From an uncultured bacterium (GTDB lineage: Bacteria > Patescibacteriota > Patescibacteriia > Patescibacteriales > UBA12465), in NCBI GenBank assembly GCA_942492765.1, contig OW818634.1:6627-70626 (forward strand): DNA of 64,000 nucleotides, in the 5' to 3' direction. A program made the translations under genes and the position numbers. The notes below the pieces were generated by a model. The model was not told the DNA's origin, did not search any database, and saw only the letters and a list, made by a program, of their open reading frames with translations. Positions within the stretch are counted from its first letter, which is position 1. Each line of letters opens with the position of its first letter. This document shows, in pieces, positions 37,580 through 37,700 of the stretch.

Positions 37580-37700
37580 CTACCTCTGCCTATGATAACG
37601 CCGGCAATCTGACGAATGATGGAATCTGGACCAATAGCTGGAACTATAATAATTGGCTAACCAACTCCACAATGATACGACTATGGTCAGAGAGCGCCCC
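37580..37700 (+). pseudogene. Orphan, frameshifted rhs 3' remnant; a ~115 bp segment about 85% identical to 35927-36040 inside the main RHS gene
   Basis: ctacctctgcctatgataacgccggcaatctgacgaatgatggaatctggaccaatagctggaactataataattggctaacc aligns with ctacctatgataatgccggcaatctgacgagcgacggaatctggactaacgcctggaactataataattggctcact. Homology continues to acgactatggtca versus acgactacagtca with a 1-nt indel, and is then lost. Confidence 0.75.

Follow-up and report, generated by a model that had tools for sequence, protein, structure and literature searches.

A truncated rhs core fragment behind a predicted toxin/immunity pair in a patescibacterial rhs island, probably the remnant of a second rhs 3' module

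We analysed a 64,000-nt stretch of DNA from an uncultured bacterium of the Patescibacteriota (assembly GCA_942492765.1, contig OW818634.1, positions 6,627 to 70,626 of the forward strand; hereafter, the window). The window carries a full-length RHS toxin gene (29660–37132, plus strand), which is followed by an immunity gene candidate and, 17 nt past the stop codon of the latter (37556), by a 116-nt segment of rhs-like sequence (37574–37689, plus strand). This segment, referred to below as the stub, is a vestigial piece of rhs core and is very probably the dead 5' remnant of a second rhs 3' module, that is, of a dissociated tip or an orphan rhs-CT (C-terminal toxin) cassette. The evidence comes from the homology of the stub and its significance, the substitution pattern between the two copies, the toxin/immunity nature of the neighbouring sequence, comparable arrays in relatives and the boundaries of the island in which the locus resides.

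Local alignment pairs the stub with nucleotides 35919–36032 of the main gene (plus strand), which correspond to codons ~2087–2125. These codons belong to the shell's YD repeats and precede the Rhs_assc_core domain (start, codon 2208) by ~85 codons. This part of the gene falls in a region that is conserved in the family (YANPHA..YDNxGNLTSDG..W.Y.N.L). The initial annotation of this DNA, in which an rhs-like segment of ~115 bp behind the immunity candidate was first pointed out, located the segment correctly and placed its main-gene counterpart (35927–36040) a few bases off. The ungapped core of the alignment (37580–37670 versus 35922–36012) is 84% identical over 91 nt, and a blastn comparison of the stub with the main gene within the window yielded 82% identity over 106 nt (E = 2e-24). 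The local alignment score is 117, compared with 41 for the second-best match of the stub elsewhere in the rhs gene and with 23 ± 2.3 (maximum, 31) in 300 dinucleotide shuffles. Therefore, the similarity is not attributable to chance, low complexity or a generic likeness among YD repeats; the first two had been named in the initial annotation as grounds for doubting the segment, and the shuffles and the next-best score show that neither is the case. The stub carries a 3-nt insertion (ACC, 37582–37584), which adds a whole codon in frame on the 5' side, and a 1-nt deletion at ~37670/37671. The encoded peptides, which are as had been noted, read SAYDNAGNLTNDGIWTNSWNYNNWLTNST versus STYDNAGNLTSDGIWTNAWNYNNWLTSST and, once the frame is restored, run on as NDTTMV versus NGTTTV. 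The 1-nt indel, the stop codon that the uncorrected frame reaches ~50 codons past the start of the homology and the loss of homology before a hairpin (37713–37737) and the gap gene (37796–38809) had also been described accurately.

The stub begins at the equivalent of codon ~2087, and its rhs homology stops at 37689, which is equivalent to core codon ~2125 and lies ~180 codons short of the DPxG motif; 38 codons of the rhs core survive. No ATG, GTG or TTG codon was found in the rhs frame upstream of the stub, and no open reading frame (ORF) was found between 37689 and gap. Apart from the main gene, nothing in the 64 kb of the window other than the stub resembles rhs, and a second homologue of the immunity gene is not present. 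With a frameshift and without a start codon, a DPxG motif, a toxin or an immunity gene, the stub makes no product, and we infer that it has no function of its own.

The substitution analysis, which covers 35 comparable codons, identified 19 substitutions between the stub and the main-gene copy, of which 11.5 are synonymous and 7.5 are non-synonymous. The corresponding numbers of substitutions per synonymous site (dS) and per non-synonymous site (dN) are 0.87 and 0.10, respectively, with a dN/dS ratio of 0.11 and a synonymous excess at a binomial p of ~1e-4. This predominance of synonymous differences suggests that the stub derives from a diverged, once-functional rhs allele and not from a local duplication. 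Over the segment, the stub shares 83% amino acid sequence identity with the main gene and ≤66% with database homologues; the nearest database protein is ~55% identical. In addition, the Trp in WNYNNWLT is common to both copies, whereas another residue, mostly R or Q, is present in all of the ~60 database homologues aligned at this position. Because both copies share this exclusive Trp, the stub and the main gene are each other's closest relatives. As judged from these comparisons, the two alleles diverged while both were translated, and the stub appears to have died only recently on that scale.

The 3' end of the main gene (36584–37132, plus strand) encodes a C-terminal toxin tip that is predicted to be a TseH/YiiX-like permuted NlpC/P60 (papain-fold) cysteine hydrolase and carries an invariant His...Cys pair. 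Homologues of the tip were found by an exhaustive HMMER search (a word-indexed search of the tip gave none) and occur on other RHS, subtilase and short scaffolds with the same DPTG junction. The immunity candidate (37137–37556, plus strand), which was identified from its ORF and from the linkage of its homologue, begins 4 nt downstream of the toxin ORF and encodes a protein of 139 amino acids with an N-terminal transmembrane helix. On an unrelated contig (L004), a homologue of this protein (35% identity over 121 amino acids, E = 3e-25) is encoded directly 3' of P0121, the closest homologue of the tip. This linkage makes 36584–37556 a credible toxin/immunity pair, with protection as a candidate function of the second gene. 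The comparison with TseH (PDB 6v98), a cysteine-hydrolase effector of Vibrio cholerae's type VI secretion system (T6SS), and with YiiX-like enzymes concerns this neighbouring tip only; the sequence identity is 12–14%, and TseH is a free T6SS effector, whereas the enzyme encoded here is an RHS C-terminal tip with a predicted activity. Searches of Pfam and NCBIfam found no family for the tip or for the immunity candidate, and a PDB sequence search yielded noise only. A single-sequence AlphaFold2 model of the tip was discarded because of its low confidence (predicted local distance difference test score, pLDDT, of 35). P0121 itself (L004, 4001–5048), a neighbour of murC-murB-hpf, is an orphan-like truncated RHS end; the 4 kb upstream of it contain no complete rhs gene, and a stop codon divides the immunity homologue on that contig into two ORFs.

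Comparable arrangements are found in relatives. The Patescibacteria contigs L001–L003, which include contigs of the nearest homologues (L001, Ga0265296_1000348; L002, ANAN16 scaffold_11766), contain arrays of up to five 5'-truncated modules, each consisting of a core end, a tip and a small ORF and beginning at core-equivalent codons 1993–2184. Core pieces within the arrays are 75–89% identical in DNA sequence, and the 82–84% identity of the stub falls in the same range. The arrays of L001 and L002 belong to the same protein family as the main gene (45–55% amino acid sequence identity to its core end), and their modules, too, begin in the last ~300 core codons. They differ from the present locus in that they consist of complete modules, whereas a single 38-codon stub is present here. 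The orphan rhs array of L002 also contains a 2,082-nt tandem duplicate (1–2082 versus 3725–5806, 99.8% identity), indicating that this array was expanded very recently.

Among the published systems, two are particularly close. In Enterobacteriaceae, C-terminal displacement via a circular intermediate gives rise to dissociated rhs tips, and the attached and dissociated core pieces in the resulting arrays are reported to be identical (Jackson et al. 2009, PMC2935791). The present locus resembles these in that a core fragment of the same clade as the main gene is located 3' of the attached tip and a small ORF, that the tip region is lower in G+C content and that the locus lies in an inserted island. 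The differences are that the core pieces are 82–84% identical here (dS, 0.87) and thus fall short of near-identity, that the 116-nt stub has neither a tip nor an immunity gene, that the protein is a TcB/TcC-like fused RHS with a Sec signal in Patescibacteria instead of a T6SS-linked Rhs and that any displacement would be read from one locus and not from a strain comparison. Orphan rhs-CT/rhsI and cdiA-CT/cdiI modules have also been described, and this literature includes fragments without the demarcating motif and immunity gene as well as orphans with in-frame stops (Poole et al. 2011, PMC3150448). Similar to these orphans, the stub is a 5'-truncated rhs core fragment that lacks an initiation signal and lies directly 3' of a full-length rhs/immunity pair. 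However, the DPxGL motif and a CT toxin domain are absent from the stub, which is followed by ancestral intergenic DNA, and no immunity gene of its own is present behind it. The stub is therefore a remnant and not a module.

The rhs locus is flanked by a PSP1-domain gene on the left (28758–29588, plus strand) and by gap, encoding GAPDH, on the right (37796–38809, plus strand), both of which were assigned by Pfam and synteny. Five relatives were found through GAPDH, of which L005 (70% amino acid sequence identity) and L087 (66%) are the closest and L024, L104 and L068 are more distant. In all five, PSP1 is directly followed by gap at a distance of 100–350 nt, with no rhs gene; rpsB and tsf precede PSP1 in L005, L087, L024 and L104, whose sequences extend sufficiently far upstream. 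The synteny between L005 and the window spans ten genes (37–76% amino acid sequence identity). Because PSP1 and gap are adjacent in the relatives, the whole rhs locus can be regarded as an insertion of ~8.1 kb. By this synteny, an island comprising the rhs gene, the immunity gene and the stub (29589–37711) is inserted between the stop codon of PSP1 and the PSP1 terminator. The L005 contig (CAZCFX010000007.1) is labelled 'uncultured Gammaproteobacteria', whereas the RHS relatives of the window are named Patescibacteria; this label is probably a binning or naming error.

On the left, the island begins in the spacer immediately behind PSP1, whose stop codon is at 29588; the first position of the rhs ORF is 29660. 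The right end lies at ~37690–37711, a 22-nt spacer that separates the end of the rhs homology from the ancestral PSP1–gap intergenic sequence and that has no similarity to the rhs gene in blastn. The window then aligns over 37712–37795 with the spacer of the relatives (the alignment to L005 starts at ~37712), in which L005 and L087 have a strong terminator and, behind it, a TG(T/C)TATAAT promoter. A terminator-like hairpin with a U-rich tail (37713–37750, plus strand; hairpin, 37713–37737) occupies the place of the strong terminator behind PSP1 in the rhs-less relatives. It was missed by a simple terminator scan and was revealed by folding and by comparison with L005 and L087; at −17.4 kcal/mol (z = −3.6), it is weaker than its counterparts in L005 (−24) and L087 (−32). 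The promoter-like site of gap, TTAACC-16-TATAAT with a TG, lies at 37740–37767 (plus strand); the element TGCTATAAT is kept in L087, and its L005 counterpart is TGTTATAAT. The terminator scan detected no terminator between PSP1 and rhs. Integrase, transposase or other mobile-element genes and flanking direct repeats or target-site duplications were not seen at the island on inspection by eye, which was not a formal test. Since the stub ends ≤22 nt from ancestral DNA, its truncation point is best understood as an island-edge or deletion boundary and not as a crossover inside the gene. ARAGORN detected no tRNA gene in the 64-kb window.

The main gene (7,473-nt ORF) encodes a protein of 2,490 amino acids with a signal peptide. 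SpvB, FG-GAP and TcdB_toxin_midN domains, which give it a fused TcB/TcC-like layout, are accompanied by RHS repeats and two CBM_4_9 domains (Pfam hits PF03534, PF13517, PF12256, PF05593 and PF02018), and the protein ends in the RHS core end and the C-terminal toxin. The RHS/YD repeats (PF05593, E = 1e-18) form four stretches, and homologues of the protein carry PF25023 TEN_YD-shell. The Rhs_assc_core domain (TIGR03696; 36281–36583, plus strand, amino acids 2208–2308) was identified with NCBIfam (E = 4e-17, 62 bits versus a cut-off of 32.5) and is closed by the DPTG motif (YVDPTGK, 36572–36583). The last 461 amino acids of the protein have >200 homologues, nearly all of which are named Patescibacteria/Parcubacteria RHS ('RHS repeat-associated core') and share ≤~55% identity. 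Every core homologue drops in similarity at amino acids 2308–2315, which is the behaviour of a polymorphic-toxin junction. The shell repeats are separated from the core end by an insertion of the two CBM_4_9 domains together with one Ig-like domain (34400–35400, amino acids ~1590–1900), which is unusual for a TcB/TcC-like architecture. In addition, three tandem repeats of ~333 nt (30889–31863), which are 72–87% identical, code for FG-GAP/VCBS propeller blades.

The rhs gene is a compositional mosaic. The G+C content at third codon positions (GC3) is 0.32 in codons 1–915 (the SpvB/FG-GAP/TcdB part), 0.47–0.50 in codons 915–2195 (the RHS shell and CBMs) and 0.30 from codon ~2195–2260 onwards. 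The change points at ~32400 and at 36240–36490 are significant by permutation (0/200), and the second one, at which GC3 drops from 0.50 to 0.30, falls inside Rhs_assc_core. The GC3 of the immunity gene is 0.31, and those of the stub, the main-gene copy and the neighbouring genes are 0.53, 0.54 and 0.52–0.62, respectively. In the change-point analysis, base composition gave no sign of a crossover at either 35919 or 36040.

For the remnant of a second 3' module, we infer as follows how it recombined, in which order the events took place and how it is transcribed. The module to which the stub belonged would once have run on through the core end, a different toxin tip and the cognate immunity gene. 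Its source would be a diverged rhs allele of the same clade that was selected at the protein level during nearly all of the time since it separated and was inactivated recently relative to the divergence. Cassette-type recombination, by either C-terminal displacement or orphan accumulation, would have joined the stub to its present position behind the current immunity gene. The 3' part may then have been lost through a deletion running to the right edge of the rhs island; alternatively, the island may have been inserted between PSP1 and its terminator with the end point of the transfer inside the orphan. It is equally possible that an orphan came in with the island and that the stub was its beginning, and if the island came in one piece, there may have been no displacement in this lineage. 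At most, the stub would now be carried as 3' untranslated RNA of an rhs–immunity transcript that runs up to the old PSP1 terminator.

Several observations weigh against this reconstruction. Neither a sequence in which the stub continues into an intact tip nor a strain variant of the locus or a close relative of the rhs gene was found in the searched collections, so that the former existence of a lost tip and immunity gene can only be presumed. No exact match was on record for the RHS protein, GAPDH or the immunity candidate, a degenerate DNA pattern for GIWTNxW[ND]YNN[WR]L had zero matches in genome_contigs and metagenome_contigs, and a word-indexed protein search with the frame-corrected stub peptide found no candidate sharing three 5-residue words. 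The two copies are 16% diverged, and the longest identical run between them is 21 nt, unlike the identical enterobacterial arrays (PMC2935791), which makes simple RecA-type recombination through the segment unlikely. Furthermore, the dN/dS estimate is based on only 35 codons, and the location of the stub end ≤22 nt from the island edge would be a coincidence under the variant with a later deletion.

Among the other explanations is that of the initial annotation, in which the stub was interpreted as the scar of a toxin-tip replacement. In this scenario, the stub is the old 3' end of the resident gene, 36040–37556 is a recently acquired module, and the end of the homology is the recombination breakpoint. 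The cassette-type layout, with a frameshifted, start-less and truncated core piece behind a toxin/immunity pair, is borne out by our analysis; the succession from the main gene through the tip and the immunity gene to the core fragment is as expected of C-terminal displacement, and the tip and the immunity gene have a GC3 of ~0.31 versus 0.5–0.6 in the core and the neighbours. However, the details of breakpoint and recency are not supported. Position 36032/36040 corresponds to the truncation point of the stub, whose homology ends at 37689 beside the island edge, and the only compositional junction in the 3' end lies at 36240–36490, inside Rhs_assc_core, and not at 36040. Moreover, because the copies are 16% diverged with a dS of 0.87, a resident stub would require that 35919–36032 of the main gene be incoming and that the left crossover be located upstream of 35919. 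A circular-intermediate model with a single crossover downstream of codon 2125 also allows the opposite assignment, in which the stub would be donor-derived and the main-gene copy would be resident. The scenario in its original form is therefore unlikely.

A further explanation is that a tandem paralogue, namely an independent second rhs gene of full length, once stood here and that deletions on either side left only the stub. Paralogues of rhs are common, and the dN/dS ratio indicates a functional past. However, this explanation needs two deletions, one of which would have ended 17 nt past the immunity stop codon, where cassette junctions fall in the orphan arrays, and nothing else rhs-like is present in the island; we consider it quite unlikely. 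We also regard as distinctly improbable the broader idea that RHS tips in Patescibacteria are shuffled as cassettes with core stubs of 75–89% identity by low-homology or homology-independent capture, with the stub at the island edge as a landing pad that is retained for the next cassette. Core pieces of this identity are too diverged for ordinary RecA-type exchange; one conceivable route would be natural transformation in which the DNA is joined illegitimately or over short patches.

Had the gene's 3' region been duplicated in tandem on the spot, with neutral decay and deletion of most of the second copy afterwards, a direct repeat at the same locus would be accounted for, and the recent 2-kb tandem duplication in the related array of L002 provides a precedent. 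However, neutral decay to a dS of 0.87 predicts a dN of ~0.4–0.5 and many stop codons and indels, whereas the observed dN is 0.10 with one frameshift and one codon indel, and this origin is thus very unlikely. We give equally little credence to the view that the stub has been kept for a function, either by offering homology at which new tip cassettes could be captured or by acting as a 3'-untranslated or regulatory element of the rhs–immunity operon. The stub does lie upstream of the only terminator, and orphan core homology can reportedly mediate recombination with the main gene in Salmonella. However, the copies are only 82–84% identical, with no identical run longer than 21 nt, and recombination between them would cost the locus its tip and immunity gene and leave a protein that is truncated. 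Finally, chance or convergent similarity, which might be suspected because the region codes for a YD-repeat motif that recurs in the gene, is ruled out by the E-value and by an alignment score far above those of the other repeats and the shuffles, as well as by the synonymous-site identity and the shared derived Trp.

The stub is real and is an ordinary by-product of known rhs cassette swapping, which is new only in its host lineage and gene architecture; it opens no new mechanism. In annotations, the stub does not warrant a gene call; the limits of the island, as well as the tip and the neighbouring immunity gene, can now be defined. As a small and clean footprint of rhs tip turnover, the stub is of interest because polymorphic-toxin dynamics have hardly been described in Patescibacteria (Candidate Phyla Radiation). 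Together with the synteny, it shows the insertion of an ~8-kb locus for a Sec-secreted, TcB/TcC-like RHS toxin between housekeeping genes and an encounter of this rhs locus with one or more diverged rhs alleles. The predicted tip resembles the cell-wall hydrolase TseH, and the locus as a whole points to possible inter-bacterial antagonism in these ultrasmall bacteria.
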